From: a virus
Length of the DNA: 64,000 bases
Strand: one strand, 5' to 3'
UHGV virus genome: UHGV-0140522
Both the position numbers and the translations under genes were made by a program. Positions 1,356-64,000 of the stretch are shown here, piece by piece; the stretch's first letter is position 1, and the number at the start of each line of letters is the position of its first letter. Below the pieces are notes generated by a model that saw only the letters and a list, made by a program, of their open reading frames with translations, was not told the origin of the DNA and did no database searches.

Positions 1356-1422
1356 GTGTTTCTCCTTGTTGGTAAGTACTTATTTATATTAATGTGCGCC
1401 ATGCGGCGCACAATCATTGTGT

Positions 1423-1833
1423 TCAGGCTGGAGGAAAGAACTTCTCCAGCGTGCGGTCTACAGCTTTATCAATGTGCATCAGATGCCAGACGACCATATC
1501 TTTGCTTCCCAGACCGCGGGTGTAGATCACGTCGAACTTACGCCAGGCGGCGTGAAACCAGTGCGGTGTATCATCAACCGGCAGATTCTCTCCAGCCTCC
1601 TTGAAGTACTTGAGCAGCATGGCCTGTTCAGCGGTGGGCGTCGGGCCAATCTCTTCCGCGTACATTCTGATGAAACGCTGCCAGTCGGCTTCATCTTCTG
1701 AAGGTTCCGGTGCGTTCATCTCTGCAATCGCCTCACGCAGCTGCGTCGCCCATTCTGGCTCCGGGAAGCCCTGGGCAATTTCGGTATCCACTACATCCAG
1801 CGCAGCGTTGGCCGCGTCATACAGTTTCTTCAT
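1423..1833 (-). CDS. hypothetical acidic protein (136 aa)
   Basis: ORF with coding-like composition; RBS present. Confidence 0.5.
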   Translation of the reverse strand: MKKLYDAANAALDVVDTEIAQGFPEPEWATQLREAIAEMNAPEPSEDEADWQRFIRMYAEEIGPTPTAEQAMLLKYFKEAGENLPVDDTPHWFHAAWRKFDVIYTRGLGSKDMVVWHLMHIDKAVDRTLEKFFPPA

Positions 1834-2188
1834 GCTTTTTCTCCTGCATTAAAAGGAACACGGTCATTGCCGCTCTGAAAGGGTTAGGGTTCTGGATCAG
1901 ATGTTGTGGCGTTGAGCTATCCACCTTTCTGTGGGCCGCTCTCCACTCACCGGGCTGTCTGGCAGGAATTACACCGATTCTGTGTCGGTAAATAATGTCC
2001 CACGCATCTTCCGGATCGTTACACCAGTCGAAGGTTCCGGCTCCGTTCGGGCCGATGGCGACCACTGCTGTGTAATCGCCTTCCTGTGAGCCTTTCCAGC
2101 CATATTGTGAAATGAGCGGTCGGTGGCCGGTGGCTTCCGCGACCAGGCAGTTAATCTCAAAGTCCGTCATCTCGCTGTAATTTTTCAT
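1817..2188 (-). CDS. hypothetical protein (start at MKNYSEM; GAAGGAG RBS)
   Basis: Internal ATG with a strong SD (GAAGGAGATCGGGAATG); the track's upstream M lacks an RBS. Confidence 0.5.
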   Translation of the reverse strand: MKNYSEMTDFEINCLVAEATGHRPLISQYGWKGSQEGDYTAVVAIGPNGAGTFDWCNDPEDAWDIIYRHRIGVIPARQPGEWRAAHRKVDSSTPQHLIQNPNPFRAAMTVFLLMQEKKHEETV

Positions 2189-2306
2189 TCCCGATCTCCT
2201 TCTCATCCGTTGCCGAACAACTATGTGGCGTTGTCACTTTGTACTTCTACGGATGGTAATTCCGTATTAGTAACCAATTTGTTTTCTTGTTGGTGATAAT
2301 ACGGAA

Positions 2307-2332
2307 ATAAAAAAGGCGTCCAAGTGGACGCC
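2307..2332 (-). terminator. intrinsic terminator (GGCGTCC-AAGT-GGACGCC hairpin plus T-tract on the minus strand)
   Basis: Hairpin followed by a U-tract immediately downstream of the SPFH gene. Confidence 0.6.
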
Positions 2333-2350
2333 GTATCTTTGAAAAGGCTG

Positions 2351-3184: not shown

Positions 3185-3385
3185 TTACTTCTCCTTAGTT
3201 TTATTGAGTGAGTTGATATACCTTCGGCCAGCTTTTAACAAGGCAACCGGGAAGACTACAGCGATGGCAAGTCCGATAAATAAGGCCAGATCGCTTTTAG
3301 CTGAGATAAGCGATGGAACCAGTAAACCGTAGATAAAGCAGACTGATATCACCGCTGAAACAGCCATGAGATAACCCTTGATCAT
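3185..3385 (-). CDS. small two-TM membrane protein immediately upstream of the SPFH gene (possible NfeD-like partner)
   Basis: Hydrophobic 66-aa ORF; operon position matches nfeD-SPFH pairs in bacteria; it has no OB domain, so partner status is inference. Confidence 0.4.
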   Translation of the reverse strand: MIKGYLMAVSAVISVCFIYGLLVPSLISAKSDLALFIGLAIAVVFPVALLKAGRRYINSLNKTKEK

Positions 3386-3445
3386 GTGTTTCCTTTTGTC
3401 GTTTTGGTGTAGAAATGATAAGTAAGTACTTATATATTTTCAAGT

Positions 3446-5825: not shown

Positions 5826-6854
5826 TTACAGAGCGTCCAGTTCAGCCAGCAGGTCGTCGAGACCTTCGTCAGCTGGTGCAGATGCAGCGGCAGAAGATGC
5901 TGAAGCACTTGCAGCTGCGGCGGCTTCCGGAGCTTTAACTTCTTCCGGTTTAGTTTCCGGTTTGAACTCAGCTTCAGCGGCACGCAGGATCTCTTCATCA
6001 ACCAGGCTGGTGGACTCTGGAGCCGGAGTGTGTGCTGTAGCGACAGCAGCTGCACCTTCCGTATGACCAGTGATAGAGCCAAAGCCTGGCAGTTCAGCAG
6101 CGGCTGATTTTGCAGCGGAAGAAATGGCCGGAGACGACATTGTTGCTGCCGGAGCCGCGATACCAATCAGACGACCCATAGTGCGAGCTGTAGACAGCAG
6201 ACGGGTTTCGTCAGCCTGGTTCGCGTATGCGATCAGATCGTGTTGAGTAGTCCATAGCTTCTCAGGAATGTCGCCTTTGTAGACTTTACGTTTCGGGGAT
6301 ACGTCGTACTTGGTGTCACGACCGGAACCGGTACGCTTAATCAGGAACGCATAGCCTTCTTCTTTGCTCAGTGGGTTGCCGATATCATCCGCAATATCTT
6401 CGGACATCACTTTGCAGATATCGTCGAAGACCGTAGACGGCAGCTCAATCAGCTGGCATTTCTCTGCATCCGCAAAGTCTTCACGCGCAGACAGAACACC
6501 GTTGACCAGATAACGCGGTGTGGCACGCATACTGTTAATGCGCTCTTCCATCGCTTTATTGCCCTTAAAGCGAGCACGACCTTCCATAACCATCTCACAC
6601 AGCTGGCAAGCGTGGCCGTGGGTGTGCTGTTCGCAGATGTAGGCGGTGGTTACATCTTTGCCTTCCTCATTCTGATGCTTAACGTAGTGCATACCGAAAG
6701 TCTGGAAGAACACGCCATTCGGGTCGTCCTTGTTCGGAAAAATGCGCAGATAGTTATTGCCGTCTTTCAGACGGGTCAAATCAACGTTATTGCCACGTTT
6801 AGAAGCAATATCGCCACGGGTCTTGTTAAGCAGATCAAGTAATGACTTAGACAT
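5826..6854 (-). CDS. putative ssDNA-binding protein (Zn-binding H/C cluster, Ala/Ser-rich linker, acidic C-terminal tail)
   Basis: CEQHTHGHACQLC motif plus C-terminal DEGLDDLLAELDAL resemble a gp32-like SSB architecture; position between exonuclease and recombination genes; AAGGAG RBS. Confidence 0.4.
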   Translation of the reverse strand: MSKSLLDLLNKTRGDIASKRGNNVDLTRLKDGNNYLRIFPNKDDPNGVFFQTFGMHYVKHQNEEGKDVTTAYICEQHTHGHACQLCEMVMEGRARFKGNKAMEERINSMRATPRYLVNGVLSAREDFADAEKCQLIELPSTVFDDICKVMSEDIADDIGNPLSKEEGYAFLIKRTGSGRDTKYDVSPKRKVYKGDIPEKLWTTQHDLIAYANQADETRLLSTARTMGRLIGIAAPAATMSSPAISSAAKSAAAELPGFGSITGHTEGAAAVATAHTPAPESTSLVDEEILRAAEAEFKPETKPEEVKAPEAAAAASASASSAAASAPADEGLDDLLAELDAL

Positions 6855-6973
6855 GTATTTCTCCTTGTTGTGATTGTGGCCATTGGCGCTATGCGCGTTG
6901 GGCGTTCGTTTATTCGTGGCTCTTTCGAGCGAGAAGAATGATAGATCAGTACTTACTTACGATCTAGCATAAA

Positions 6974-9209: not shown

Positions 9210-9391
9210 AGTGGCGTCGGTTTGCAAGACAGACCTTATGAAAGCAGTTTTAGTAAAGCAGTCCGTAGTTCAGGTGTTATCCAACAGATTTCCCTTCTTC
9301 GTGAGTCTCCTCCTAAGTGCCCAAGTAAGTCCCACTCTATCAGACCAAATTCGCCGCGTTGTGTGGCTCTCGAATCAAGAAGGTAATATCT

Positions 9392-9607
9392 ATGTCTAAC
9401 AAAATGACTGGTTTAGTAAAATGGTTTAACGCTGATAAAGGCTTCGGCTTTATCACTCCTGCTGATGGTAGCAAAGATGTGTTCGTTCACTTCTCTGCAA
9501 TCCAGAGCAATGACTTCCGTACCCTGGATGAAGGCCAGAAAGTTGAGTTCTCTATCGAGAATGGCGCTAAAGGCCCGGCAGCAGCAAACGTTGTAGCCTT
9601 AAGCTAA
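9392..9607 (+). CDS. cold-shock protein, CspA family (RNP1 KGFGFI, RNP2 VFVHF)
   Basis: Near-identity to enterobacterial CspA/CspB/CspG over the whole length; the track ORF 9359..9607 includes this gene in frame. Confidence 0.9.
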
Positions 9608-9737
9608 TACACTCTGGTAATCCATTTGCTGCGATAACGAAGACGGCTTTAGCCTGAGTAGACAGAACGATGTGATTATCAGACGGTGAAAGGCTGATCT
9701 GGCGGCATTCGCCCGACCAACACGCCACCAATAAATG

Positions 9738-13903: not shown

Positions 13904-15139
13904 TTAACCGAAGATCTTCTGAACCACTTCACGCGCTGCCTGTGCAGACGTGGATGGAAGTTTATTGATAAACGACTTTTCGATGCCGGCAGAGAAATCA
14001 CCGCGCATCATTCCGATTTTTGCGGACAGCAGCAGCTCGCGAGGGCCGATTGGCTGGCTGATCAGATGCTGTTCATAACCTTCACGGACAAGGTTCGCGA
14101 ATTTCACCATCTTCTCGGCGTATTCGCGGATGACGCCAGCCTCAGCCAGCATGTTGACTTCAGCCTTAGTGCTCATGTACTTCACGTTCGAAACAATGCC
14201 GAAGCGCGAGAAGTTCGCCGCGTTCTGGATGTTCGTTCCTTGATAGAGACCCGTTTCGTCGCCAGAGCCGTTAGTGTTGCCAGTGCCAATGAAGGCAAAG
14301 CGTTTATGCGGAGTGATACGGCGCCAGTCCGGAGTTGCCTCTTTGATGATCAGCGGCTCTCCTTCAAGAACTGGCTGGTACACACCCAGAATCTGCGGGA
14401 ACGCGAAGTCATATTCATCAGCGAGGTACACCCAGCCATTTTTCATCGCCAGCGCCAGCAAACCCGGCTCGAAGTAGGTGGAGCCATCGCGAGCGAGGAT
14501 CTGGCCTGTAACGTGTGCTTCTTCCATAGACGCCGTATGCTGGGCGCGGATCAGTGGTCGATTCAGCAGGGCGCATAGCTGCGTAGGAAGAGAAGATTTA
14601 CCGGTTCCTGCATGACCCCAGAGATAGCCTGGGATTCCGATTTCCAGCATCATGAAGATGTCTTTAATCAGGTCGAAGTCGCCATACACATAGTTCTTCT
14701 TCGCTTCCGGTACGAACTCCGGATATGGCGTGTTGACGTTGACTGTCACCTGTAGTGGTTTTCCGCGTGGCGTTCCCAGCTCTTTGATCGTTACGCCAAG
14801 CAGCTCGTGCGCGGCCACCAGTTCAGTCTTGTATTCGACCGTTCCTACGTAGCCCGGATGTGCGCTAATCTCCGCTACTTTTCCTTCGCCTGAATGCTTT
14901 TCGGCAAGCTTCTCATTGAGTTTGGCCAGTGCCGTGCGAGAGATCGTTGGTTCATCCGGAAACGCAGAGGTGTACATTTTCACCACTTCGTCCACGTCCA
15001 GACCCTTCGCGGACTCAGGAATGTTTTCGCAACGGCCCATAGAGATATGGGATTTCAGGTAATGAAAGGATTTGCCACACCACTTGCAGACGATGGCTTC
15101 CGGCAAATGTTCTTCTTGCTGTAGTGCAGTAGCGGTCAT
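13904..15139 (-). CDS. AAA+ ATPase, CobS/MoxR (AAA_5) family with N-terminal zinc ribbon
   Basis: Walker A GHAGTGKS; Walker B LADEYD; CKWCGKS..C zinc ribbon; AAGGAA RBS. Confidence 0.75.
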   Translation of the reverse strand: MTATALQQEEHLPEAIVCKWCGKSFHYLKSHISMGRCENIPESAKGLDVDEVVKMYTSAFPDEPTISRTALAKLNEKLAEKHSGEGKVAEISAHPGYVGTVEYKTELVAAHELLGVTIKELGTPRGKPLQVTVNVNTPYPEFVPEAKKNYVYGDFDLIKDIFMMLEIGIPGYLWGHAGTGKSSLPTQLCALLNRPLIRAQHTASMEEAHVTGQILARDGSTYFEPGLLALAMKNGWVYLADEYDFAFPQILGVYQPVLEGEPLIIKEATPDWRRITPHKRFAFIGTGNTNGSGDETGLYQGTNIQNAANFSRFGIVSNVKYMSTKAEVNMLAEAGVIREYAEKMVKFANLVREGYEQHLISQPIGPRELLLSAKIGMMRGDFSAGIEKSFINKLPSTSAQAAREVVQKIFG

Positions 15140-15235
15140 GTGTTTTTCCTTACTGTTTGTCGTTCGTGGGGTATATCTTATATAAATATATTAGTCTGTA
15201 TAGTAAGTGATTACTTATTTTTACGGGTAAAACAA

Positions 15236-17626: not shown

Positions 17627-17735
17627 GAGAATTTCCTTGTTATTAAAACAATTTGTTTTCTGATGTGCGTAATTTATCACTGTACGAACAGGCGACTAAG
17701 CTGTTCGTACAGGCTTCTATCGGCAGGAATGTGTT

Positions 17736-17948
17736 TTAAATGGTTCTAACGGCAAGAGAGCCGCAGCCAGTATTGATGAGAGTGAAATGTTTATTTTTTA
17801 GCTCAAAAGTGAAAACCGTCGTATCAACCATCTCCACGGGAAGCTCTTCGGATTCCAATTCCGTCAGGATCGTTGCCACGCCATCCAGTCCAATCGCATA
17901 CGCGTGTCCAACCTCAAGGGCGGTCAATTTAGAAGTTATATTTTTCAT
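17736..17948 (-). CDS. hypothetical protein (70 aa)
   Basis: ORF track. Confidence 0.35.
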   Translation of the reverse strand: MKNITSKLTALEVGHAYAIGLDGVATILTELESEELPVEMVDTTVFTFELKNKHFTLINTGCGSLAVRTI

Positions 17949-18060
17949 TTCATATCATCCAACTGAACACATTTGAAAGTTTGTCAATACTACTACCTAT
18001 TGTATCAATATGGAATGAGTCTATATCAGATACGTATTACTTTTGCCTGTAAGCTAATAG

Positions 18061-18090: not shown

Positions 18091-18212
18091 AGCGGTGTCC
18101 CAGGGGATTAGTACCTATCGAAATTAAATAGATAAGTCTTTACAACCCTGGCCTTTGCTGTAATATCAGTAAGCACTTACCAGAGATAAACAAAACACGC
18201 AAGGTTTACTAC

Positions 18213-18599
18213 ATGGCTACCAACGAAACAGAGATCAAACAAGGTCGCTACGCAGCTTATATTGACTCGTTAATCACAATCTCGCCTAAAAGTCAGGCCA
18301 CCATTGCCAAAGAGGTTGGGTACAAGAACGCCAACAATCTCTCCCTCATTAAAAGCGGCAAAATCCCGCTGCCGGTAGATAAAGTTCGAGCTTTAGCTAA
18401 AGCGCTAGATGCAGACCCGGTTCGACTGATGCTGATGGTTCTGGAAGAACGCCACCCTGAGTTGCTCGAATTTTTTCGCGAAGAGGGAACTGCGCCTCTC
18501 TCCGCTGATGAAAAACTTGTTCTAGAAGCGTTCCGTAACCGTTTTAACGGTCAGCAGGGCGCATCAGAAAAGGTGGTCGAGGCCATCAAGTCACTGTGA
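18213..18599 (+). CDS. HTH DNA-binding regulator (Cro/CI/XRE-like helix-turn-helix)
   Basis: SQATIAKEVGYKNANNLSLIKSGK is a classic HTH; divergent from the recombinase gene. Confidence 0.55.
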   Translation: MATNETEIKQGRYAAYIDSLITISPKSQATIAKEVGYKNANNLSLIKSGKIPLPVDKVRALAKALDADPVRLMLMVLEERHPELLEFFREEGTAPLSADEKLVLEAFRNRFNGQQGASEKVVEAIKSL

Positions 18600-19481
18600 G
18601 AAATTTACACGAATAAGCTCGGTGGCTAGACGATCTCCCTTGAATTTGTGGTCTATCTCGTCTAAGTCTGTTTGATTAACGATAGATGCGATGTACGCTG
18701 AGAAGTTGTTCAAGGCGTCTCGCATCTCATCCATATAATCGTGGCGATCATAGACGCGATCTATCCCTTCAAGACTGTGGTTCATAATCTTACGAGCCAC
18801 CTCCTGGTTAATCCCTAGAGCAGGGAAATAACTACGCGCTGTACGTCTCAGATCGCGTGGGGTGAATGACTCAACCTCCATCAACTCAGGTCGTTCCAGT
18901 ATCCTTCTCAGTGCCTGGGCAATGGCCACCTTAGACATTGGCGTATCCACGCCCTTCTTCTTATTCGAAGGAACGAGCCACTGGCTGCCTTTCCCGTACT
19001 CAAACAACTCTTCCACGCATTTGCGCATTAATGGGCTTAACGGCAGCGCGTGCTGTCTGGCCGATTTGTTACGCGTACCTTGATTCCATACATCACGTTG
19101 AAGGTTGAACTCATCCTTTCTGGCTCGGAGCACTTCATCGGGGCGTCTGGCAGCGACAAGACAGAGCCTGGCCGCCCACTTTGTGCCTTCGCACACATTG
19201 AAGTAATCCCAGACGTTCCAGAATACCCAGACCTCGGCGTCGGTCAGCTTACGTTCGCGCGGTACTGGCTTTGCGCCACCGGCAACTCTGTTGAGCGACA
19301 TATCATTCAACGGTGATGTATCAATCAGCCCCTGAAAGGCGCACCAGCTCAGGAACTGTTTCATCAGGGAGAACACACGTCTGCCCTGGACGATCTTGCC
19401 TTCCAGTATCAGCGGGTTCACCAGCTGGTTAACCAAGACCCTACTTATATCACTTACCTTTACTTCAGAGATATGCGGCAT
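18591..19481 (-). CDS. tyrosine recombinase / integrase-family (XerCD-size core; alternative upstream start at 19697)
   Basis: C-terminal catalytic signature (LRRTA .. HSLEG..R..Y..RHDY: R, H-x-x-R, Y); the N-terminal 72 aa of the track ORF look non-coding. Confidence 0.7.
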   Translation of the reverse strand: MPHISEVKVSDISRVLVNQLVNPLILEGKIVQGRRVFSLMKQFLSWCAFQGLIDTSPLNDMSLNRVAGGAKPVPRERKLTDAEVWVFWNVWDYFNVCEGTKWAARLCLVAARRPDEVLRARKDEFNLQRDVWNQGTRNKSARQHALPLSPLMRKCVEELFEYGKGSQWLVPSNKKKGVDTPMSKVAIAQALRRILERPELMEVESFTPRDLRRTARSYFPALGINQEVARKIMNHSLEGIDRVYDRHDYMDEMRDALNNFSAYIASIVNQTDLDEIDHKFKGDRLATELIRVNFSQ

Positions 19482-19794
19482 TACATGTATCAAAACACAA
19501 TGAACAGCTATTTCAGGTCGACGCCTCGTTATCAGTAAAGATAAGCGAGTGAATAACATGAAGGCGGAAGAAAATGACATGTCTCCGTCGAATTTGGCGG
19601 TCGACATTGCCGACAAACCGGAAGCGCGTTCGAGGTACTCGATGGCTTCCCGAGAGGTGTTTTCTGCTGCGCGTGCTTTATCAAAGGTGTTTTTCATCGT
19701 CCACTCACTGAGTGAAGCCCTTTTACTGTATGTATAAACAGTATATTAGGCATAAGTTTCTGTATGATCAACCATAAAATAGCCTGTTTTGTAC

Positions 19795-19827
19795 AATGAT
19801 TCCATACTTACTAGGTATGGAATCATT
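19795..19827. promoter_or_regulatory. perfect 13-bp inverted repeat AATGATTCCATAC-N7-GTATGGAATCATT (operator-like)
   Basis: Read directly; the GTATGGAATCAT half-site recurs near 24962 and 25985. Confidence 0.5.
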
Positions 19828-22601: not shown

Positions 22602-22841
22602 ATTGAGTCCTTTCAAGTGAGTAACTGAAAGTACTATACATTAGAAACACAAAAAAGATAAGTGTGTACCTACCTATCAGAATGACTTCAACAAAGTTTT
22701 TTACGGTATTAAAGGGGGAAAATAAAGTTTTTTTAGTTATTATAGGATAGGCGCTTTGCTTCAATCATGACTACTATGAAGCGGTCATGTGATACAGTTT
22801 AAGCTTGCCAGTGCGTCTACTAAAGGAATACTGAAATTATT

Positions 22842-24723: not shown

Positions 24724-24798
24724 TGGCGATGGTGGGTGGACTCGAACCACCGACCAGTTGATTAACAGTCAACCGCTCTACCACTGAGCTACACCATC
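24724..24798 (-). tRNA. tRNA-Asn (anticodon GTT), CCA encoded
   Basis: Cloverleaf: acceptor GATGGTG/CACCATC, D-arm GCTCAGTGGTAGAGC, anticodon loop CTGTTAA, T-arm GGTGGTTCGAGTCCACC, discriminator G, CCA. Confidence 0.9.
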
Positions 24799-39448: not shown

Positions 39449-40237
39449 TTACACACGAGCACCATAAATTGCACCGACTTTAGTCCATGTAGGCACGTTC
39501 CCCGTGACAGCCTTACCCGCCGCGCCACCTCCGTACATTGTCCCCAATCGTCCAGTGGCAGCGGCACCAGCAGCCCCCACATTACCTCCACTACCGCATG
39601 TGTATTGGACAGCAGTAGAGCCGATCAAATATTGAGCGCCAATCCCGGCAGCGGTTAGAGTGCCAGAAGTTGCCGCACGCGAATTTGAAGCTGGTGGCCT
39701 TGTAGTGTTTGCAACACCAAACGGGCGACCGCCCCCACCCATACCACCATCGGCTGAGTTACCGCCACCGCCACCGCCACCACCGGCAATAGCGCCGTTA
39801 TTGGTTATTCTTAAACGGGTCCCAATTCCGTTGTTAATAGCAGTGCCACCGGCAGCACCGCCACCTTTAACGCCACCATTACCGCCACGGCCATAGACAG
39901 TTACACCTGCGTTGATTACCAGGCTGATATAAGAGTTGGTAAGCGAACTTGGGAAATCTAAACATGGCACGCCGCTACTGTACGACACCAGATCCCCTGT
40001 AATGGTAACAACGACTGGTGTCGACCCCTGTGATTTTAAATAGTTGATCAGTGTGTCTTTGTTGTAGTTATGATTCGCACCGATGCTGTAATGAATTTCC
40101 GTAGAACGACCTGCTAACTGAGACATATTCCCAGCAGCAGACAATTGCACCGCAGTTCGAGCCGCGCTCATCCATCTCTGGCCGGTAACACTAACAGCCG
40201 AAGATCCAATCCAACCGGGAACACCGACAATTGGCAC
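39449..40237 (-). CDS. glycine-rich tail fibre protein (GTG start)
   Basis: Poly-Gly tracts (GGGGGGGNSADGGMGGGG) typical of phage fibre proteins; AAGGAG RBS. Confidence 0.55.
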   Translation of the reverse strand: MPIVGVPGWIGSSAVSVTGQRWMSAARTAVQLSAAGNMSQLAGRSTEIHYSIGANHNYNKDTLINYLKSQGSTPVVVTITGDLVSYSSGVPCLDFPSSLTNSYISLVINAGVTVYGRGGNGGVKGGGAAGGTAINNGIGTRLRITNNGAIAGGGGGGGGNSADGGMGGGGRPFGVANTTRPPASNSRAATSGTLTAAGIGAQYLIGSTAVQYTCGSGGNVGAAGAAATGRLGTMYGGGAAGKAVTGNVPTWTKVGAIYGARV

Positions 40238-43300: not shown

Positions 43301-44378
43301 CAGCAGACTCACCTGCAGCGGTGGCGCTTTCGGAAGCGGCGTTCGCGCTGGATGCGGCAGCTGACTCGCTGGCAGCAGCAGCCTTCTGTGATGCGTCGGC
43401 GTTGGTTTCTGACGTTTTGGCAGCCGCAGCACTTGCCACCGACTCACCGGCGCTCGAAGCAGCATGGGTTTCTGATTCCTTAGCCGCATTTTTTGAGGCC
43501 AGCGCATCAGCTGCACTGCCAGCGGCGGCCTGCTCTGAGGCAGAGGCATTGGTTTCAGAGGTTTTGGCAGCAGCAGCAGAGTCAGACGCAGCAGACGCTG
43601 AAGCAGAGGCTTCGGACGCGCTGGTCGCAGCCTGAGTTTCAGATGCTTTCGCCGCATCTTTGGATGCCGCGGCACTCGTGGCTGATTCTCCCGCTTCAGT
43701 CGCTTTGGTAGACGCTGTCGCGGCAGACGCAGCAGCTTCTACCTTGAAGCTCTCAGCATTGGTTTCAGACGTTTTGGCAGCGGAAGCGCTTGCACCGGCA
43801 GCGTTTTCTGATGCAGCAGCTGCGGCAGCACTCTGGCTTGCTTCGGTGGCTTTGGTAGACGCTGTATTGGCGCTTTCCGCAGCGGCCGCGGCACTGGCAG
43901 CAGCTTCCCTGGCCTTGTCGCCAGCGGCATTGATAACGTCGGCGTTATCCGTATACCATTTCTGGTTTGCGTTATGCTCATCGACGATCTGCGTCAGCGA
44001 CTTCACGGTCACTTCCGTACCGTCTTCACGCTCAAGCGTTACCTCATCAACTGCCGTCAACCAGGTGCGCATCGTCTTCGAGTCGGCTGACATTCGGGTC
44101 ATGAGCGCGGTAAAGCGTGCGCTGAACTGCGTTAAGTCGCCTTCATAGGTTGTGATGATGCGGCACGGAACGTCCGTCTGGGTCTCGCCCGTGTACGGCT
44201 CCGCGAGAATCAGGCTTGTGTCGCTGATTACACGCTTAATTTCGTACAATTTGTTGTCAGGGCCGATGACGATCATGCCCGGCAGAACGCCGTTGGCGGT
44301 CACATTCCAGTACGTGCCAGTGCCAGAAAGTGCGTCACTTCCCTGTGTAAATGTGATAGTACCTTCCCTGTACCACAT
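40302..44378 (-). CDS. long tail fibre protein (1358 aa) with ~280-aa Ala/Ser/Glu-rich repeat region and a C-terminal intramolecular chaperone (peptidase S74-like) domain
   Basis: Repeats of the AAKTSETNA type; the C-terminal ...SDRRSKRNIRKIE..LYEIQ.. block resembles the autoproteolytic chaperone of fibre and spike proteins. Confidence 0.65.
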   Translation of the reverse strand: MWYREGTITFTQGSDALSGTGTYWNVTANGVLPGMIVIGPDNKLYEIKRVISDTSLILAEPYTGETQTDVPCRIITTYEGDLTQFSARFTALMTRMSADSKTMRTWLTAVDEVTLEREDGTEVTVKSLTQIVDEHNANQKWYTDNADVINAAGDKAREAAASAAAAAESANTASTKATEASQSAAAAAASENAAGASASAAKTSETNAESFKVEAAASAATASTKATEAGESATSAAASKDAAKASETQAATSASEASASASAASDSAAAAKTSETNASASEQAAAGSAADALASKNAAKESETHAASSAGESVASAAAAKTSETNADASQKAAAASESAAASSANAASESATAAGESADAALASKNAAASSEQKAKTSETNAKASETAASESATAAEASKAAAQNSEAHAVESAAAAAGSADAASKSATAAADSATTATEKANVASEQATASEASAAAAKTSETNAKSAETAAEGSATAAAKSAGEAAASATTATEAMAVAEAKAKEASDSAALASTKATEATDAAAGAKTSELNAKESETKAYEYAQNAQASVASVKWKGTSAEMDMATDAPKWVKVSTARMPQSTSTVYIEVIGGAGYEAGQPGLAAMADIVLRTAAGDPKSLNAVAYRTMDSAVLTVATVNTTDDNYDIYLKAGAGSQKLVVNLQSAGAVVETLEVLEVVDTLPEDAVEGTVYHRVISDQDGSITGSLVGNASTATVLQTARQIGGVRFDGSADINLPGVNIQGDQNTTGNAATATKLQTPRTINSVMFDGSANITIPTLVSRGRVNALASNTQGAMPGIQMYEAYNNSYPTAYGNVIHLKGAYASGEGELLVGWSGTSGAHAPVYVRSRRDAGDANWSDWAQVYTTAHKPTAKDVGAAQAFSASYSTGAGNWTTAEFIAWLKERGAFEVPYWMMKGSWSYADNKIITDTGVGNICLAGAVIEVLGTEGAMTIRVTTPTTTTGGGIACAQFTYINHGSAYAPAWRRDYNTALKPTAADVGALPISGGSLSGGITASGELQVTSAKTDGGQFRAVSGNYGFFIRNDGANTYFLLTNSGSAYGGWNGLRPLTINNATGRASISNGIDIGGGATINGSVGLGVANGLGGNSIVLGDNDTGFKQNGDGILDVYANSAHVFRFVNSTLQSLKPLSVTGDITSSAWVYANRFSINSSSGAWIDMRNQNVIFGRNAVSTSSAQALLRQDHADRKFFLGGLGNSQFGFYMINNSRTANGTDANAYLQNDGTWVCGGNGSFNDVYIRSDRRSKRNIRKIERALDKLDRIEGVLYEIQVCDRYEQSGGLIAQDVQNVQPELVTVDHNDQSGEPRLRLNYNGVIGMLVEAVKELRKEVRELKARM
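42780..43950. repeat. degenerate tandem DNA repeats encoding the Ala-rich fibre shaft; they generate spurious antisense ORFs (e.g. 42766..43635 +)
   Basis: Read directly: periodic GCAGCxGC/TCAGA units. Confidence 0.55.
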
Positions 44379-44492
44379 ATTCTCTCCTTGAAAGGACGGG
44401 CATCCATGCCCGCCATAAGTAAGTACATACCTATATTACTTGTTATAAAAACGCTTTTCTACACTGCATAAAATAACAATTAACGCATTGAG

Positions 44493-49817: not shown

Positions 49818-50602
49818 GTTTCATCTCCCTTGAGTAAGTCTCTGTGACGCAGGTGGTGCGTCGTGTGTTTCTGGTACATGCCACCGTAATAAGCGCGACA
49901 GCTCAGACGGTCGATCTGGTGGTGCAGGATCATTCCGTCTCCGATGTACACCGCGCAGTGGTCAGGCATCTTTCCGTACTGAATGAAGAAGACGTCACCA
50001 CGCTGGGGTTCCGTCCCCGGCGCCAGACGAACAAGCCCTTCATTGCGGTAGTTCTGATCGAGAATGTCGGTATCGCCCGTGTACCACGATGGAATATGCA
50101 GGTGCGGGTTTGGATTCAACTCGACGTTGAACTCACGCTTCAGGTAGTCGCGGCACAGCATCCAGCAGTCGAAGACACCAAACACATAGGGCCGCCCCAG
50201 ATAAGGCATCTCAAAGCCGTCTGGGGTGATCACATTCATCTCACTGAAGTGAAATGGCGCATCGCCCTCGACGTTCTTCCGAACAGCCAGAATCAGCCAC
50301 GGAACTTCCGTTGCCTCGCATCCGGCGCGGTCGGCGTCTGACGCTTCAGCTGATTCGTCAGTGTGGGAGTGCCAGATGGCAACCACGTCTCCCGCATCTT
50401 CCGCTGCGATAATGTCGTCAGCGTGCATAACAAACGTGTTTTCCGGGTTTTCCGACACGTTCCGGGCTTCCATGAAGCGATATTTCTCGCCAGTGGTACG
50501 TACCAGAAAGCCACACGCTTCGTTCGGGTAGCGTTTGATGGCTGTCAGATAGATTTCCTGCATAACGTCCGAACCAAGCTCAGGGAAAGCTCTATTACCC
50601 AT
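49805..50602 (-). CDS. tail assembly protein K-like (MPN/JAB plus NlpC/P60 domains)
   Basis: HSHTDES..SDADR JAB motif and a Cys/His NlpC/P60 core (CWMLCRDY.. DHCAVYIGDG). Confidence 0.75.
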   Translation of the reverse strand: MGNRAFPELGSDVMQEIYLTAIKRYPNEACGFLVRTTGEKYRFMEARNVSENPENTFVMHADDIIAAEDAGDVVAIWHSHTDESAEASDADRAGCEATEVPWLILAVRKNVEGDAPFHFSEMNVITPDGFEMPYLGRPYVFGVFDCWMLCRDYLKREFNVELNPNPHLHIPSWYTGDTDILDQNYRNEGLVRLAPGTEPQRGDVFFIQYGKMPDHCAVYIGDGMILHHQIDRLSCRAYYGGMYQKHTTHHLRHRDLLKGDETCLS

Positions 50603-51293
50603 AACGCGTTGCTCCAATGAACCCGCCAAAGTGGATTACGCCATTGGCAAAGTAGTTACGGCGTGCGTTGCATGAGTCGTAGCGTTTCGTGCAGTAATCC
50701 GCGCCTGACATGGTGGTTTGCTGGTTGTTTTTGTCGAAATAGGGGCCGGTGTAGCCGCACTCTGGACCGCGGTATTTCCACGGGCAGGTGTTTTTGATGA
50801 TCTGGCGGTACGGCAGCTGCACGCCCATCAGATCGAACACACTCGACAGCTCAAACTCGACAACCTCATGGGTTTCGAGAGTCTTCTGTTCGATGAACCA
50901 CATCTCATCCGGGAAGTGCTGATTTGGATCTGCGGTTGGATTCCCGTCTTTGAAGTTGGCCGCGTCGAGAAAACGCGCCAGCGTCATCTTGCGGATGATG
51001 CGACAGCCAACCAGATCGTCGTTTGCCTGAACTTCAGCGGAGACAGTTCCGGCAAAGTTGGAGACCTGGATTTTTGGACGCGGCAAAGTACCCTGACCAG
51101 TCTTATCAAAGCCTGACGCCTTGATTGGCCACGGTTCGTAGGACACGCCTTGCCAAACGACTGGCTCCATCAGTTCGTTTGTACCAGCGTGGAAAAACAG
51201 CTTGCCCCCAGAGGTGGTGTTCGACATATCAAGTTCGAACAGCTCAATGAGCGCGGAGGGCGACAAGCTCTGAATATCAGCTTTAATACCCAT
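50595..51293 (-). CDS. minor tail protein L-like (start at MGIKADI), C-terminal 4-Cys cluster
   Basis: gpL-like N-terminal domain; CPWKYRGPECGY..C..C iron-sulfur-type cluster; AAGGAAG RBS. Confidence 0.75.
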   Translation of the reverse strand: MGIKADIQSLSPSALIELFELDMSNTTSGGKLFFHAGTNELMEPVVWQGVSYEPWPIKASGFDKTGQGTLPRPKIQVSNFAGTVSAEVQANDDLVGCRIIRKMTLARFLDAANFKDGNPTADPNQHFPDEMWFIEQKTLETHEVVEFELSSVFDLMGVQLPYRQIIKNTCPWKYRGPECGYTGPYFDKNNQQTTMSGADYCTKRYDSCNARRNYFANGVIHFGGFIGATRYG

Positions 51294-51382
51294 CGTTTCT
51301 TCCTTGAAATAAAGAGGCGCCAACATCCTGTCAGCGCCTATAGATAATAGTAAATAAGTGCTTACTTATCTAGTGGGTTGAA

Positions 51383-57077: not shown

Positions 57078-57824
57078 TTATTCGGCAGAATTAACCGTTA
57101 CTGCTTTGGTCGCTTTCTTGCCGCCGCTATTGCTGGTAAAGGAGATATTTGCCGAACCTTCAGCTACTCCGCGAACCAGACCAGTCTGGTCAACGGTTGC
57201 TTTCTCCTGATTGTCGGATTCCCACACACCGGTTTTATCGCCGGCATCTGCAGGGGTGATCTGGGCAGTCAGCTGCACGGTCTCACCGGCTTTAACTTCC
57301 GGAGATTCCGGAGAGATAGAGACGGTTTTAACCGGCTTTGGGCCGCTCATTTTCCCCAGCACGCCGTCGTCATCCGGGTAAGCGGTGAACTGAACGGAGA
57401 ACACGCGAACATCATCAGACTGGTAGGTCATGGTGAAGTTACCTGCGGTCGCAGCTTTCGGGATGGTCAGAACGTAGTCGGTGGTATCCTGCGGGGTCAG
57501 AACCAGCTCTTTGGCTACGTCGATCAGGTTGATGCCCTGTGCGGAAGTGATGGTCACAGCGTTATCTTCTTCGCTCAGGGTAGATCCCGGCATCAGATCG
57601 ACCATATTCTGCAACACAGACTCGGCCAGCGGCGCAGTGATAGTGATGTTACGACCCTGCACCAGCTCGGAGATGGTGGTCTGCCCCAGCTGGTCTACGG
57701 TGACTTTCAGAGTTTCGGTCGCAACCTCAACCTGAACACCGCCTTTGGTGTAACCCAGATCAACGCCACCAAACGACACTTTGCAGGCGCCAAGTTTGAT
57801 GTTTTTTACATGGGTATTGGACAT
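57078..57824 (-). CDS. major tail tube protein with C-terminal Ig-like (Big_2) domain
   Basis: gpV-like arrangement: tube domain plus C-terminal Big_2 (..VKAGETVQLTAQITPADAGDKTGVWESDN..). Confidence 0.7.
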   Translation of the reverse strand: MSNTHVKNIKLGACKVSFGGVDLGYTKGGVQVEVATETLKVTVDQLGQTTISELVQGRNITITAPLAESVLQNMVDLMPGSTLSEEDNAVTITSAQGINLIDVAKELVLTPQDTTDYVLTIPKAATAGNFTMTYQSDDVRVFSVQFTAYPDDDGVLGKMSGPKPVKTVSISPESPEVKAGETVQLTAQITPADAGDKTGVWESDNQEKATVDQTGLVRGVAEGSANISFTSNSGGKKATKAVTVNSAE

Positions 57825-57898
57825 TGTTGGAAAACTCCTTTTTCCGTTAAATCAGCACCTTCATGGCGCTAATGGTAAGTATATACTTACTTATTTTA

Positions 57899-61424: not shown

Positions 61425-61498
61425 TTCTCGCTCCTACAAAAAGGGTGGGCGTATAGCCCACCCCTAAACAGTAGATAATTACTTACCTACTATACTGA

Positions 61499-62374
61499 TC
61501 AAATTTTTACGTTGGTCAGCGCGGCGATAGCCTTGTCGTGCTTGTTCGCCAGAGAGCAGTACCACTTAACGCGGGTACGGGTTGCGTCTTTGTTCTGAAC
61601 AGTACCGATGTTCTCAACAACGATACCGGCGTTTTCACCGCCATACAGACCAGTCACACCGTTCTCTTCGGACAGGTGCAGGCAGTAGATGCTTGCTTTG
61701 CCAGAATCAGTCGGGATGAAGTCGTTCACGATGAACGGTACACCGTTGTGGCACAGCATCGGACGACCGAAGTTTTCCATCATGATTTCGGACGGGCCGA
61801 GGCTAACGGTACGCAGCAGAGCGCGATAAGCACGCAGGTGCTCGGAACGCATCATGATGCAGTCTGCGCCCAGATCTTTCACCGCGTCGACCAGCTCGTC
61901 GAACATGGAGAAGGTCATGGAAGCGCCTTCGATGTCGATCTTCTGATCGTCGTGCATCAGCTTCGGAATACCGTCGAACGCTTTGTTGTTGGTGCTGGAG
62001 TCGCCCAGAATCAGGTTGCGGCGGAATGCGCGAGCCAGACCTTTCACCTTCTGACGAACCTGGATTGCCAGCTGGTTGTTGGTGTCGGACATAGTGGTCG
62101 CCAGGAATTTGTCGACGTCTACGTCGCCTGCCAGGATACGCAGCTTCGCAACGTGTTCGGTGAAGGTTGCAGCGCCTTCGGTGATGGTGTCGTTCACATC
62201 AATGAAGGTTGCTTCGCTCAGGGTAGCTTCGCGGTTGTAGAGGTATGCCTTAGAATTAATCTTCATGAAAGGCAGAACAGCGAACAGGTCATCGCGATCG
62301 ATGATGGTCTCGATCACACCCTGCTCAAGTTCGTTGTTAGACAGCTTTTCAGCTTCATCACGCAGTAATGGCAT
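61499..62374 (-). CDS. major capsid protein (HK97 fold, inferred)
   Basis: Size, position after the scaffold gene; a strong terminator-less short spacer. Confidence 0.6.
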   Translation of the reverse strand: MPLLRDEAEKLSNNELEQGVIETIIDRDDLFAVLPFMKINSKAYLYNREATLSEATFIDVNDTITEGAATFTEHVAKLRILAGDVDVDKFLATTMSDTNNQLAIQVRQKVKGLARAFRRNLILGDSSTNNKAFDGIPKLMHDDQKIDIEGASMTFSMFDELVDAVKDLGADCIMMRSEHLRAYRALLRTVSLGPSEIMMENFGRPMLCHNGVPFIVNDFIPTDSGKASIYCLHLSEENGVTGLYGGENAGIVVENIGTVQNKDATRTRVKWYCSLANKHDKAIAALTNVKI

Positions 62375-62400
62375 CTTTCATTTCCCTATGATTTAAGATG

Positions 62401-63297
62401 TTACTTGAGTCCGATTTTCCCCAGACCGGAGGTCAACTTATCCATAGTCGACTTGCTCTTCGGCTGGTTTACTTTGTGGGTCGGTTTGCTATTGGAACCA
62501 GCACCCTGCTTGGCTTCGCTGCGCAACAGTGCGTCAGCTTCCGGATCTGCACGCAGAATGCGCTCAATCGCGGATTCGAACGGTAACGGTTTGCCTTCAC
62601 CGTCAACCAGAACTGCACGTTCTTTCTGACCGGCTGGCTTATCAAAGCCCACAACACTACCGTCTTCACCCACTTCGAAATGAGAGCCGTAGATAACGCG
62701 AGCCTTAGCCGGAGTCATCAGAACTTTGTCACGCAGGAAGGCAGAGCCGCTGAAGGAAGCGCCAACAGTCATTTCGACCAGTTGGGCCTTCAGTGCGGCG
62801 TTCTCGCTCTCCAGAGCGGAGTAGCGTTCGTCGCGCTGTGCCAGTTCAGCCTGGTGCGCTTCGATCATCTGCTTTTTCACAGCATCGAACTCACCACGGC
62901 GTTCCAGTTCAGCCTGCTCCGCCTCCCGACGTGCGGTTTCTGCGGCTTGTTCAGCTTCGAGAAGCTGGCGAGCACGCGCCGGGTCAATATCACCGTACTG
63001 AGCCAGCTGATCGGCCAATGTGCGCTCTTTCTCCTTGCGCTTCATGTTCTCTTTCAGCAGGTCAGCACCGGCTTTCTTGGACTTACGCAGTTCTGCCAGC
63101 AACTCTTCCTGAGTCATACCGGCATACTCGTCGTCGTCACCCTTCGGTTGCTCTTTTTGCTCGCCCTGTTTGCCTGGGTCTTGATTGCCCTGCTCATTGT
63201 CTCCAGCAGGAGCACCGCCACCAGCGCCTCCGCGCTCATGCGCTTCAGCTACATCCATCAGGCCACGACGGGCCATAAGCATTTGCCACAGATTCAT
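62401..63297 (-). CDS. scaffolding protein (highly charged, coiled-coil)
   Basis: E/A/R-rich coiled-coil composition; position upstream of the capsid gene. Confidence 0.55.
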   Translation of the reverse strand: MNLWQMLMARRGLMDVAEAHERGGAGGGAPAGDNEQGNQDPGKQGEQKEQPKGDDDEYAGMTQEELLAELRKSKKAGADLLKENMKRKEKERTLADQLAQYGDIDPARARQLLEAEQAAETARREAEQAELERRGEFDAVKKQMIEAHQAELAQRDERYSALESENAALKAQLVEMTVGASFSGSAFLRDKVLMTPAKARVIYGSHFEVGEDGSVVGFDKPAGQKERAVLVDGEGKPLPFESAIERILRADPEADALLRSEAKQGAGSNSKPTHKVNQPKSKSTMDKLTSGLGKIGLK

Positions 63298-63319
63298 AGA
63301 AATTCCTTTTCGTTACTTA

Positions 63320-64000
63320 TCACTCGGTCTCTTGAGTAGATGAGTCCCCATTCCCTCGGGGTTGATCATGCCCGCTTTCTTGGGCTGTATCTTGATCATA
63401 AGTAAGTACTGACTTATTTTCAAGGGTGTTAAGATCATTTTTTGGAGGAAATTTCAAGAGATCTTTTTGAAATTCCTTCTGCATCGCATCGGAAATGTTC
63501 GGGAAGACCTTCTCGATGAGCATTTCCATCTGATGACGACGAACAGAATCAGGCGCCTGAAGCAGCGACAGTTTCTCGGCAACGGCAAACTCGTCAGTCA
63601 GACCGCGAATGTCGAAACTTTCCGGGTATGCGATCAGAGAGTGGTCTTCATCCAGTTCGACACCCATCCATTTCGCTGCCAGTTGCATCATCTGGCGCTC
63701 TGCCCTTTCGAGACGTTCTGCTTTCGTCACCAGCAGACTGTTAACGCGCTGGAAGTCGTACATCTTCGCTGCGCCCGAAGAGTTATCGATGCCCTGTGCG
63801 TTATCCTGCTTGGTTCGCTCACCTGCCACGCCAACGGAATGGTAGATCTCGTTAATCACCGTCTTAATCGTGGTGATAATCATCTGGGCCTGTTTCGGGT
63901 CCGGAGACAGGTAGAATGGCTGATTACCGCTCTCAGAGTCGAAGGTGAAGACGCGTTTTGTCCCCATTTCGAGCACTTTGGTGTGGTTTTCATCGCCCGG
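63320..64000 (-). CDS. partial structural/morphogenesis protein (5' end outside window; portal C-terminus or head morphogenesis)
   Basis: The open frame continues to the window edge with no in-frame stop. Confidence 0.4.
   Translation of the reverse strand, partial: PGDENHTKVLEMGTKRVFTFDSESGNQPFYLSPDPKQAQMIITTIKTVINEIYHSVGVAGERTKQDNAQGIDNSSGAAKMYDFQRVNSLLVTKAERLERAERQMMQLAAKWMGVELDEDHSLIAYPESFDIRGLTDEFAVAEKLSLLQAPDSVRRHQMEMLIEKVFPNISDAMQKEFQKDLLKFPPKNDLNTLENKSVLTYDQDTAQESGHDQPRGNGDSSTQETE

Follow-up and report, generated by a model that had tools for sequence, protein, structure and literature searches.

A dispersed palindromic box in an SSU5-like phage-plasmid, a candidate operator of its Xre/cI-type repressor

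The 64,000-nt stretch of viral DNA analysed here (UHGV-0140522, hereafter the window) is an SSU5-like phage-plasmid and carries a repeated palindrome, hereafter the box, which is real and occurs far above chance. Judging from sequence comparison, we consider it likely that the boxes are operators of the element's own 128-aa Xre/cI-type HTH lysogeny repressor. No earlier description of the motif was found in the searchable literature.

The box and its distribution

The box is a palindrome of 20–26 bp with the consensus a-w-r-ATAAGTAAGT in one arm and ACTTACTTAT-y-w-t in the other, that is (AAGT)2(ACTT)2 with TA steps at 4-bp intervals, and its near-invariant positions are T/A bases spaced by 4 bp. 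A PWM scan retrieved 18 strong boxes in the window, 17 of them intergenic in a window that is 90% coding. Simpler searches give the same picture: the 16-mer proposed in an earlier note on this DNA has 24 matches with up to 3 mismatches against 0.27 expected, and the 20-mer ATAAGTAAGTACTTACTTAT finds about 20 loci with up to 6 mismatches against about 0.9 expected. The earlier note was therefore right that a palindromic motif recurs across the window, and 17 of its 18 coordinates are correct within about 10 nt; no box exists at 22627, the true copy being 31 nt off (22658–22677). Its exact core, AAGTACTT, occurs merely 5 times, with two of the five inside genes, and the actual unit is the longer palindrome. 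The 20-bp cores, to which no strand is assigned, are as follows.

1041–1060, box 1: 1 nt from the ATG of a small membrane-protein gene (860–1039, minus); overlaps a sigma-70-like promoter, TTTACA-17-TAGTAT (1077 to 1049); Cyrano orthologue at 59396
1368–1387, box 2: right behind a terminator-like hairpin; abuts the RBS of gene 1080–1355 (minus)
3418–3437, box 3: top match of the window, upstream of gene 3185–3385 (minus); occupies the spacer of TTGAAA-17-TATCAT (3443 to 3415) and overlaps its −10; the Cyrano orthologue precedes CYRAN_56, a gene silent in the lysogen
6941–6960, box 4: 84 nt upstream of the gp32-like SSB gene (5826–6854, minus); syntenic box in the Acinetobacter relative
15199–15218, box 5: between the CobT-like and AAA ATPase (13904–15139, minus) genes; syntenic in the Acinetobacter relative
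18165–18184, box 6: extends from the −10 across the +1 of the repressor promoter; candidate auto-operator
22658–22677, box 7: divergent gap; the PhoH-like gene (22601, minus) starts 54 nt away
25530–25549, box 8: overlaps the stop codon of gene 25546–25851 (minus); upstream of the tRNA-Asn region
28216–28235, box 9: weaker copy, preceded by a terminator-like hairpin; the ATG of 27729–28205 (minus) lies 8 nt away
29125–29144, box 10: divergent gap, 41 nt from 28287–29081 (minus) and 118 nt from 29265–30335 (plus)
33734–33753, box 11: 10 nt upstream of 32996–33721 (minus), at the head of the helicase/primase module; syntenic in the Acinetobacter relative
33862–33881, box-like sequence: degenerate, at the apex of a separate hairpin element of about 60 nt; doubtful as a true member of the family
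39437–39456, box 12: overlaps the stop codon of the receptor-recognition gene (39449–40237), 60 nt upstream of the holin-like gene 39051–39374 (minus)
44415–44434, box 13: 34 nt upstream of the tail-fibre gene (40302–44378, minus), followed by a conserved hairpin
51350–51369, box 14: upstream of the minor tail protein L gene (50595–51293, minus)
57875–57894, box 15: upstream of the Ig-domain tail protein gene (57078–57824, minus); overlaps TTGAAT-18-TATACT; at the Cyrano orthologue, expression rises from CYRAN_11 to CYRAN_12
61471–61490, box 16: flanked by the major capsid stop codon on one side and a strong terminator-like hairpin on the other
63398–63417, box 17: within the 3' end of the portal gene, 98 nt upstream of 62401–63297 (minus); fills the spacer of TTGAAA-17-TATGAT

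Box-to-start-codon distances have a median of about 45 nt and a range of −1 to 138 nt, not the 15 to 40 nt that had been proposed. The T/A-rich run reported to follow the motif does exist, as an A-rich stretch on the gene-distal side (T-rich on the plus strand), but the preference is weak. It had also been said that cargo genes lack the motif. This largely holds, since the upstream regions of the KAP-NTPase, csp, toxin-antitoxin and parA genes are without a box, while two plus-strand genes (22842 and 29265) share divergent gaps with boxes; these boxes sit nearer the minus-strand lytic genes.

Aligned by the direction of their genes, the copies yield a near-perfect palindrome whose arms are independent of each other, with no covariation beyond column composition (paired fraction of 77.1% observed and 77.2% shuffled; covariation score of 0.148 observed and 0.153 shuffled). 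The palindrome lies in transcribed gaps near ribosome-binding sites and can be drawn as a stem-loop, as expected of an RNA hairpin that serves in processing, transcript stability, control of translation or antitermination. Against this stand the absence of compensatory variation between the arms and the folding of four boxes, three of which give −2 to −4 kcal/mol, within the shuffled range, the fragment at 63398 being the exception at −9.4 kcal/mol (z −3.6). An Rfam search with the palindrome returned no family match. Disfavoured by the lack of covariation, the mostly weak hairpins and the lack of an Rfam family, a role in RNA appears extremely improbable. Taken together, the symmetry of the box, the independence of its arms and the weakness of its RNA hairpins point to a DNA site for a symmetric protein.

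The candidate repressor and the boxes of related elements

The protein proposed to act at the boxes is encoded beside the integrase gene.

18213–18599, plus strand: Xre/cI-type HTH gene of 128 aa, proposed lysogeny repressor
18139–18166, plus strand: sigma-70-like promoter of the repressor gene, TTTACA-16-TAATAT

The 128-aa protein matches Pfam HTH_31 (weakly) and PHROG 8, transcriptional regulator. Its single-sequence AF2 model, of moderate confidence in the HTH domain only, adopts an Xre/cI/C-protein HTH fold, with C.AhdI, C.BclI and the N-terminal domain of lambda cI as best fold matches, at weak E-values, and its predicted recognition helix spans residues 41–47 (NNLSLIK). A box lies over the −10/+1 region of the repressor promoter in the window, in Cyrano, in Klebsiella and in Y. 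pestis pFra, and the Acinetobacter switch region holds two boxes and a possible half-site.

Neither of the two checks set by the earlier note, enrichment upstream of genes over the whole replicon and conservation in related elements, counted against the motif. A complete replicon that is 99.4% identical carries about 30 boxes, of which 29 are intergenic and 12 lie beyond the window region, and relatives retain the motif. The repressor of the E. coli phage Cyrano is 66% identical to that of the window, the stretch GYKNANNLSLIKSGK, which includes the predicted recognition helix, being identical, and its box is the same. The repressor of Acinetobacter pLUH6011-1, at about 38–41% identity, carries GFKRPNVLSMIKSGE, and the box of this plasmid is (CAGT)2(ACTG)2, found at 11 sites over 33.7 kb, several in syntenic positions. 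Essentially no SSU5-type box occurs at the Acinetobacter locus, and in the window the Acinetobacter-type pattern is matched no more often than expected by chance. One Klebsiella plasmid combines a near-identical repressor helix and a short, different C-terminus with the box GATAAG-N6-CTTATC, and a Moellerella plasmid has a box variant with a different centre, while the common Klebsiella type and Y. pestis pFra retain the SSU5-type box. The sequence of the box thus appears to change with the predicted recognition helix of the repressor, a correlation over five lineages in which all other element-encoded proteins have diverged too. Box specificity is probably set by the element rather than by the host, and would follow the HTH protein.

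The single virulent-type element compared, the distant and virulent-looking Stenotrophomonas phage BUCTxx99, is syntenic and retains the ParB-like genes. Neither a repressor or integrase homologue nor a recurrent palindrome was found in it (its last 9 kb lying outside the comparison), and its junctions measure 6–21 bp at the places of the box-bearing gaps of the phage-plasmids.

A regulator-binding site was among the readings offered by the earlier note, and its repressor option agrees with a symmetric site that lies on the repressor promoter and co-varies with the HTH repressor. We infer that the 128-aa protein binds the box and represses by doing so. A repressor dimer, or a pair of dimers, would occupy the 20–26-bp palindrome T(AAGT)2(ACTT)2A at some 30 copies in the short gaps that head replication, recombination, nucleotide-metabolism, structural and lysis blocks, so that repressor made in the plasmid state would directly silence the lytic genome. 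Where the box lies within a sigma-70 promoter, as it does at some sites, bound repressor would occlude RNA polymerase, and at the repressor's own promoter it would bring about negative autoregulation. Where no promoter is recognisable, the box may serve as a roadblock or insulator against read-through from cargo genes expressed in the lysogen. The earlier note's view of the motif as a coordinator of the minus-strand operons is fair, with the qualification that the sign is probably negative, that is, silencing during plasmid carriage.

Promoters, expression in a lysogen and other readings of the box

About one-third of the boxes overlap a recognisable sigma-70 promoter, and 6 of 50 fill the spacer of promoters that match the consensus at 9 or more of 12 positions in the direction of the gene. 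The remaining two-thirds or so are without a match of at least 9/12, so a plain operator-in-promoter picture misses most copies. Expression was examined in the published RNA-seq of LF82, which carries Cyrano, a relative about 80% identical (PMC9928086, S1 table). In LB, expression of the genes behind the best-matching box-filled promoters scarcely exceeds the detection floor, if at all, with a log2 value of 2.32 for CYRAN_56 and CYRAN_60, while the repressor orthologue CYRAN_45 is expressed in the same samples (PMC9928086), about 10-fold above background. After 6 h in macrophages, those silent genes show a 6- to 15-fold step-up over the preceding gene (PMC9928086), which is suggestive only because many plasmid genes rise there.

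Silence of box-preceded genes in the lysogen is also compatible with an absent activator. A phage-encoded dimeric activator could bind the palindrome in place of −35 recognition and turn on weak lytic promoters that lack a −35, in the manner of P1 Lpa-type late promoters or of MerR-like spacer binders. Most boxes indeed lack a good −35, and the palindrome, which is preceded by an A-rich run, has an end, TAT(C)AT, that looks like a −10 hexamer. However, the −10-like end is equal on both strands and shows no gene-oriented bias (−10 matches near boxes average 3.66 in gene orientation and 3.80 in the opposite one), boxes stand before early, middle and late functions alike, and box-to-gene distances vary too much and in some cases leave no room for a downstream transcription start site. 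Furthermore, the box of the repressor gene covers the +1 of a good sigma-70 promoter, and the silence of near-consensus, box-containing promoters in the lysogen argues that repression is required. No candidate activator was identified among the proteins scanned, and a P1 Lpa-type late promoter was set aside because neither a −10 at a fixed offset nor a restriction to late genes was found. An activator is, in our estimation, improbable. Promoters of a phage-specific sigma factor, which the earlier note had listed as one option, or of a phage RNA polymerase would also explain why the motif is element-specific and stands in gaps ahead of many operons, and a few copies contain the T4-late-like TATAAATA. 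Such promoters are, however, asymmetric and oriented with transcription, while the box is symmetric, bears no relation to gene direction and is degenerate, with about 1 bit per position. Over all sites, neither a directional consensus nor an orientation-specific −35/−10 at a fixed box offset was found. Neither a sigma factor nor an RNA polymerase was found among the roughly 35 of about 130 element proteins scanned or in the annotation of three relatives. With its symmetry, variable distance and lack of a fixed −35/−10, the box does not behave as a promoter of this kind, and the reading is very improbable.

Another element-encoded DNA-binding protein, such as a ParB-like protein acting as KorB does, or an FljA-like or Cro-like one, could bind the boxes to regulate genes globally, to partition the element or to organise its genome. 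The gene complement includes those for two ParB-like proteins, an FljA-like regulator and several small proteins of unknown function, and a Cro-like protein could share operators with the repressor. KorB, of the ParB family, binds the palindrome OB, present about 12 times on IncP plasmids at variable distances from promoters, and exerts global repression. The ParB-like genes of the element, however, are silent in the carriage state, being at background in the LF82 lysogen (PMC9928086), and they persist in BUCTxx99, which has no boxes. Tracking of box changes by the recognition helix was seen for the HTH repressor, the sole protein compared in this way. We give such a protein about as little probability as an activator, and retain the HTH repressor as the likely ligand of the boxes.

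Comparison with known systems and implications

By analogy, the closest counterparts of the boxes appear to be the C1 operators of P1 and the "stoperators" of mycobacteriophage L5. P1 is an enterobacterial plasmid prophage whose C1 protein acts at many operators over a genome of about 100 kb and not at one switch. Its operators are an asymmetric 17-mer, and its late genes are controlled indirectly via Lpa; the site described here, in contrast, is palindromic, is also found directly ahead of structural and lysis genes, and would be bound by an Xre-type HTH repressor. The gp71 repressor of L5 and other Cluster A phages has 20–30 sites genome-wide in short gaps. A few, those of the early lytic and repressor loci among them, are true promoter operators, and the majority have no promoter association (PMC6550527). 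Within Cluster A, the motif co-varies with the repressor in heteroimmune relatives, and some prophages are extrachromosomal (PMC6550527). Tens of dispersed intergenic sites are likewise present here (18 in the window, about 30 in the replicon). However, L5 sites measure 13–14 bp, lack dyad symmetry, are bound non-cooperatively and are oriented with transcription (PMC6550527), while those described here are 20–26-bp palindromes with no orientation, in an element of a Gram-negative host.

As in lambda, 434 and P22 cI/Cro and the C-protein boxes of R-M systems, a dyad-symmetric site is paired with a predicted dimeric protein of Xre/cI fold, and an operator overlaps the repressor's own promoter. 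Those systems have 2–6 operators clustered at one or two switch regions, while about 30 are dispersed here, and the half-site, an unusual tandem of two 4-bp units, (AAGT)2, also sets the box apart from their operators.

A tentative extension, which we hold with much less confidence than the operator function itself, is a stoperator-like silencing in which a single Xre repressor acts at about 30 sites, both operators and bidirectional roadblocks, and in which switches of the 4-bp unit define immunity groups. If this is true, AAGT to CAGT switches and spacing variants would decide which phage-plasmids superinfect or coexist, and the boxes would insulate cargo expressed in the lysogen from the lytic genes. 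The network would then cover common clinical SSU5-like plasmids of Klebsiella, E. coli, Salmonella and Enterobacter, as well as Y. pestis pFra/pMT1 and the Acinetobacter relatives.

Distribution of the box in the window and in related replicons

The palindrome upstream of genes is strongly over-represented in the window, where the 16-mer proposed in the earlier note has 24 matches with at most 3 mismatches for 0.27 expected. Expectation-maximisation on the sites yields a longer unit, ATAAGTAAGTACTTACTTAT, that is T(AAGT)2(ACTT)2A, which often extends to 26 bp (ATGATA...TATCAT) and whose near-invariant positions are T and A bases at a 4-bp spacing. With at most 6 mismatches, this 20-mer occurs at about 20 loci for about 0.9 expected. 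A PWM scan of the window retains 18 strong boxes (named here by the start of their 20-bp core), 17 of which lie in the approximately 10% of the sequence that is non-coding, and 16 of the 41 intergenic gaps of at least 25 bp contain a box. Of the 18 positions first listed, 17 are right, the remaining one (22627) holding no box and the true one lying at 22658. Two details of the site were corrected: exact copies of the claimed core, AAGTACTT, are much rarer (n = 5, two of them intragenic), and the distance from box to start codon, previously put at 15-40 nt, spans -1 to 138 nt. A tandem-repeat scan returned nothing related to the box.

The first 20 kb of the window share 99.4% identity with the Citrobacter plasmid pRHBSTW-00524_2 (112.6 kb, IncFIB), 96.7% with Salmonella phage SSU5 and about 80% with the Escherichia coli phage-plasmid Cyrano and with Klebsiella phage-plasmids, and match 876 records among the plasmid records searched. 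The gene content, carried nearly entirely by the minus strand, fits an SSU5-like element, with a T4-like replication and recombination module, DnaE, siphovirus structural genes, an integrase, ParA, toxin-antitoxins and cargo, together with NrdAB located outside the window. When the whole near-identical replicon is scanned, about 30 boxes are found, 29 of which are intergenic though 86% of the sequence is coding, so that the enrichment upstream of genes announced by the earlier note holds at this scale; 12 of these boxes lie outside the window region and are therefore independent of the training set. The expected conservation in related elements is also observed. Cyrano carries 25 boxes of the same consensus in its first 100 kb, mostly in orthologous gaps, the common Klebsiella type 12 boxes in 32 kb, and the Yersinia pestis plasmid pFra/pMT1 seven strong boxes in its SSU5-derived part. 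The Stenotrophomonas phage BUCTxx99 is syntenic with SSU5 (MCP 53% identical) and has many tRNAs and homing endonucleases. Neither the repressor nor the integrase has a homologue in its first 100 kb (tblastn E > 0.7), the palindrome scan that picks out the boxes of the SSU5-like replicon yields no recurrent palindrome, and its junctions are 6-21 bp at the places of box-bearing gaps in the phage-plasmids.

Several other features were encountered. A repeated hairpin of about 60 nt at 33830-33895 (approximate, minus strand), AT-rich with a conserved GC-rich foot (CCTGCTTCCGTATATA...TATATACGGAAGCAGG), has copies near 34617, 67719 and 95616 of the relative replicon and near 31172 and 78096 of Cyrano; with a folding energy of -20 kcal/mol (z -3.3), a following U-run and a degenerate box-like sequence at its apex, it resembles a terminator or insulator module that recurs and differs from ordinary boxes. 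A perfect 12-nt inverted repeat, CTGTACGAACAG-N9-CTGTTCGTACAG, lies at 17680-17712 just upstream of a CobT-like gene, where the longest ORF of that gene starts. A tRNA-Asn gene (24724-24798, minus strand) is located about 730 nt downstream of box 25530, Cyrano having tRNAs Asn, Thr and Ser at the same place; a second ARAGORN call, a tRNA-Lys at 36621-36701 (plus strand) overlapping the parA start, lacks Rfam confirmation and is probably false. A full-length cspA thermoregulator (Rfam RF01766, 225 bits; 9216-9650, plus strand) covers the 5' UTR of a cold-shock protein gene together with its coding region, this being an opposite-strand cargo gene without a box. The upstream gap of the AT-rich cargo gene 33913-35616 (minus strand, GC 34%), encoding a KAP-family P-loop NTPase matched by PADLOC to the candidate defence family PDC-S49, has no box either. 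Outside the window, an FljA-like protein is encoded in full length at 23593-24120 of the relative replicon L002 (Pfam Flag1_repress, E 1e-96); since FljA binds RNA and represses flagellin translation, this would be a possible host-modulating function of the phage-plasmid.

Symmetry of the site and its relation to promoters

Once the sites are oriented by their downstream gene, the profile is a near-perfect palindrome, with no conserved element at a fixed distance on either side. The arms vary independently, a tally over the sites revealing no excess of complementary double changes, and a pair-counting tool gives 77.1% paired positions versus 77.2% in shuffles, with a covariation score of 0.148 versus 0.153. 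Folded as RNA, three of four boxes reach only -2 to -4 kcal/mol, within the shuffle range, the exception being the 63398 fragment (-9.4 kcal/mol, z -3.6), and the boxes have no match in Rfam. An RNA hairpin was rejected on the absence of covariation, the weakness of these hairpins and the lack of an Rfam match. The palindromic profile, the independence of the arms and the weak RNA folding therefore identify the box as a DNA target of a symmetric protein, presumably a dimer, and not as an RNA structure or a directional promoter read by a sigma factor or a single-subunit polymerase. The earlier note had left open a promoter or a regulator-binding site, and it is the latter part, in a symmetric form, that is supported.

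Only about a third of the boxes overlap a sigma-70 match of at least 9/12, in varying registers. At the commonest register, the -10 match scores 3.66 on the gene strand versus 3.80 on the opposite one and the -35 match 2.76 versus 2.70, and a 9/12 match occurs at 6 sites in the gene direction versus 1 in the opposite direction (6 of 50 being strong and gene-oriented). A fixed -35/17 bp/-10 architecture around the box was consequently discarded, as it does not differ from its mirror orientation. Individual promoters are nevertheless closely interlocked with boxes: the whole spacer and part of the -10 are taken up by the box in TTGAAA-17-TATCAT (3443 to 3415) and in TTGAAA-17-TATGAT (box 63398), and TTTACA-17-TAGTAT overlaps box 1041, whose last bases adjoin a start codon. 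The box does not fit the consensus sequences of Fur, TyrR, TrpR or LexA.

The candidate repressor and its co-variation with the box

Among the ORFs of the window that were screened, a single one encodes a recognisable transcription factor, a 128-aa Xre/cI-type HTH protein (18213-18599, plus strand), whose gene is convergent with the integrase gene and whose Cyrano orthologue, CYRAN_45, was annotated as a putative repressor by the authors of the LF82 study (PMC9928086). A 'regulator' annotation at 5826-6854 was rejected, the product being a gp32-like SSB, and the ORFs 17736-17948, 26000-26212 and 316-531 gave no Pfam match. A PDB sequence search with the repressor gave no match; in its AF2 model only the HTH domain, whose helix 3 spans residues 41-47, is predicted with moderate confidence, and the best fold matches, at weak E-values, are restriction-modification controller proteins, the lambda cI N-terminal domain and the Stl N-terminus. 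Homologues of the repressor are encoded by about 1000 plasmids. The repressor gene has a promoter, TTTACA-16-TAATAT, directly followed by a box covering +1, an arrangement also present in Cyrano, Klebsiella and Y. pestis. In pFra/pMT1 (L015, 17951-25894) the repressor is 92% identical, its predicted recognition helix is unchanged and boxes occupy syntenic places, with the caf1R-caf1M-caf1A-caf1 capsule island as an insertion that separates the integrase gene from the box which, in the window, precedes the tRNA region.

Repressor, recognition region and box in the window and related elements
Window / SSU5: reference repressor; recognition region GYKNANNLSLIKSGK; box T(AAGT)2(ACTT)2A
E. coli Cyrano: repressor 66% identical; recognition region identical to window; same box as window
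Common Klebsiella type: repressor 66% identical; GYKNPNILSLIKKGR; very similar box (GTAAGTAAGTA...TTACCTAT)
Klebsiella NZ_CP097685.1: repressor of 101 aa with a different C-terminus; GFENANNISLIKSGR; GATAAG-N6-CTTATC, the same half-site word at a different spacing
Moellerella plasmid: repressor 44% identical; GYTAHNNISMIKSGK; outer arms of box kept, centre changed
Acinetobacter pLUH6011-1: repressor about 38-41% identical; GFKRPNVLSMIKSGE; box (CAGT)2(ACTG)2

The Acinetobacter box displays an A-to-C switch in all four 4-bp units. pLUH6011-1 has 11 sites in 33.7 kb; several occupy syntenic positions, in front of the AAA ATPase, gp32-like SSB and SbcD orthologues and where the helicase module begins. 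The Acinetobacter-type pattern has only chance-level matches in the window, and in the Acinetobacter locus the SSU5-type pattern matches just once, overlapping a native box with 3 mismatches. Box and repressor thus appear to co-vary, a relation that is correlative and drawn from the sequences of five lineages. Since phage-plasmids of one host family use different boxes, a host-factor site was rejected and the binder is therefore element-encoded.

The surroundings of the repressor gene offer further observations. A possible extended -10 (TGaTACAAT), which would be the promoter of the divergent 70-aa gene 17736-17948, is closely followed by a degenerate half-box at 17988-18008 (minus strand ATAGGTAGTAGTA). 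No lytic-side gene is induced more strongly in macrophages than the Cyrano orthologue of this gene, CYRAN_46 (log2 4.3 to 10.8), and the 70-aa gene could encode an early product of the Cro or antirepressor kind. About 27 nt upstream of the start codon of the integrase gene (18591-19697) lies a LexA/SOS box close to consensus, TACTGTTTATACATACAGTA (19724-19743, minus strand). The integrase gene overlaps the 3' end of the repressor gene by 9 nt, and in the Cyrano RNA-seq its level goes from log2 5.6 to 10.3 in macrophages. An S24 cleavage domain is missing from the repressor, and convergent transcription driven by SOS could contribute to induction. Between the YafO-toxin and integrase genes, a 12-7-12 inverted repeat (ATGATTCCATAC-CTAGTAA-GTATGGAATCAT, 19796-19826) is laid out like the core site of a tyrosine recombinase (lox/dif-like) and may serve plasmid multimer resolution.

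Expression in the lysogen and competing readings

Expression data are those of Cyrano, a relative approximately 80% identical to the first 20 kb of the window. In the LF82 lysogen grown in LB, the genes that follow the boxes best matched to sigma-70 have expression at the floor or close to it (CYRAN_56 and CYRAN_60 at log2 2.32, CYRAN_4 at about 3.4), and CYRAN_45 is expressed in the same samples at log2 6.4-6.8 (PMC9928086, supplementary table S1). Silence of good promoters in the lysogen calls for a repressor that is present there. After 6 h in macrophages, expression steps up across these boxes (CYRAN_55 to 56, +3.5 log2; 59 to 60, +3.9; 11 to 12, +2.5), CYRAN_45 also goes up, and ciprofloxacin induces Cyrano 39-fold (PMC9928086). 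Over all boxes the steps are mixed and clear only where a sigma-70 promoter overlaps the box, and they were therefore not used as a general test.

The best-supported reading is that the boxes are probably a dispersed operator set for the Xre-type lysogeny repressor of the element. Boxes embedded in promoters would allow repression by promoter occlusion, the box at the repressor's own gene would mediate negative autoregulation, and boxes without a promoter might act as roadblocks or insulators. A dimeric activator resembling P1 Lpa is an unlikely alternative, against which stand the symmetry of the box, its presence on the repressor promoter and the silence of strong promoters. Another element-encoded binder, Cro-like or ParB/KorB-like, is about as unlikely; for the ParB/KorB-like version, the ParB-like genes are at background in the LF82 lysogen (PMC9928086) and are kept in a relative without boxes. 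That the boxes are promoters for a phage sigma factor or RNA polymerase is very improbable given a symmetric, non-directional site and the failure to find either protein among the ORFs screened, which cover part of the element, and least probable of all is an RNA element, which the missing covariation and weak hairpins contradict.

Among known systems, mycobacteriophage L5 and Cluster A, with their operators and stoperators, come closest to such a repressor-operator set; P1, whose C1 operators are scattered, is also close. In L5 and Cluster A phages, 20-30 sites are found, most are not associated with promoters and the motif co-varies with the repressor (PMC6550527). In contrast to L5/Cluster A and P1, the box is palindromic and orientation-free, with a half-site made of two tandem 4-bp units; the L5 site is asymmetric and oriented and, as the box is neither, it was not filed in the L5 family, although the network would work like L5 stoperators. 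The dispersal of about 30 sites also sets the system apart from lambdoid switches. Literature searches by motif sequence and by topic (SSU5, pHCM2, operators) retrieved no description of the motif or of SSU5-like operators, nor was one of SSU5-like lysis-lysogeny control present in the literature that could be searched.

SSU5-like phage-plasmids are widespread in clinical Enterobacteriaceae and carry resistance and defence cargo. A defined operator with a candidate repressor would explain how about 100 lytic genes stay silent on a 110-kb plasmid while interspersed cargo is expressed, and would make immunity and incompatibility groups predictable from sequence, as for Cluster A mycobacteriophages. 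Operator decoys and repressor mutants would be direct handles to induce or cure these plasmids. The repressor and boxes persist in Y. pestis pFra/pMT1, where they flank the caf1 capsule island.
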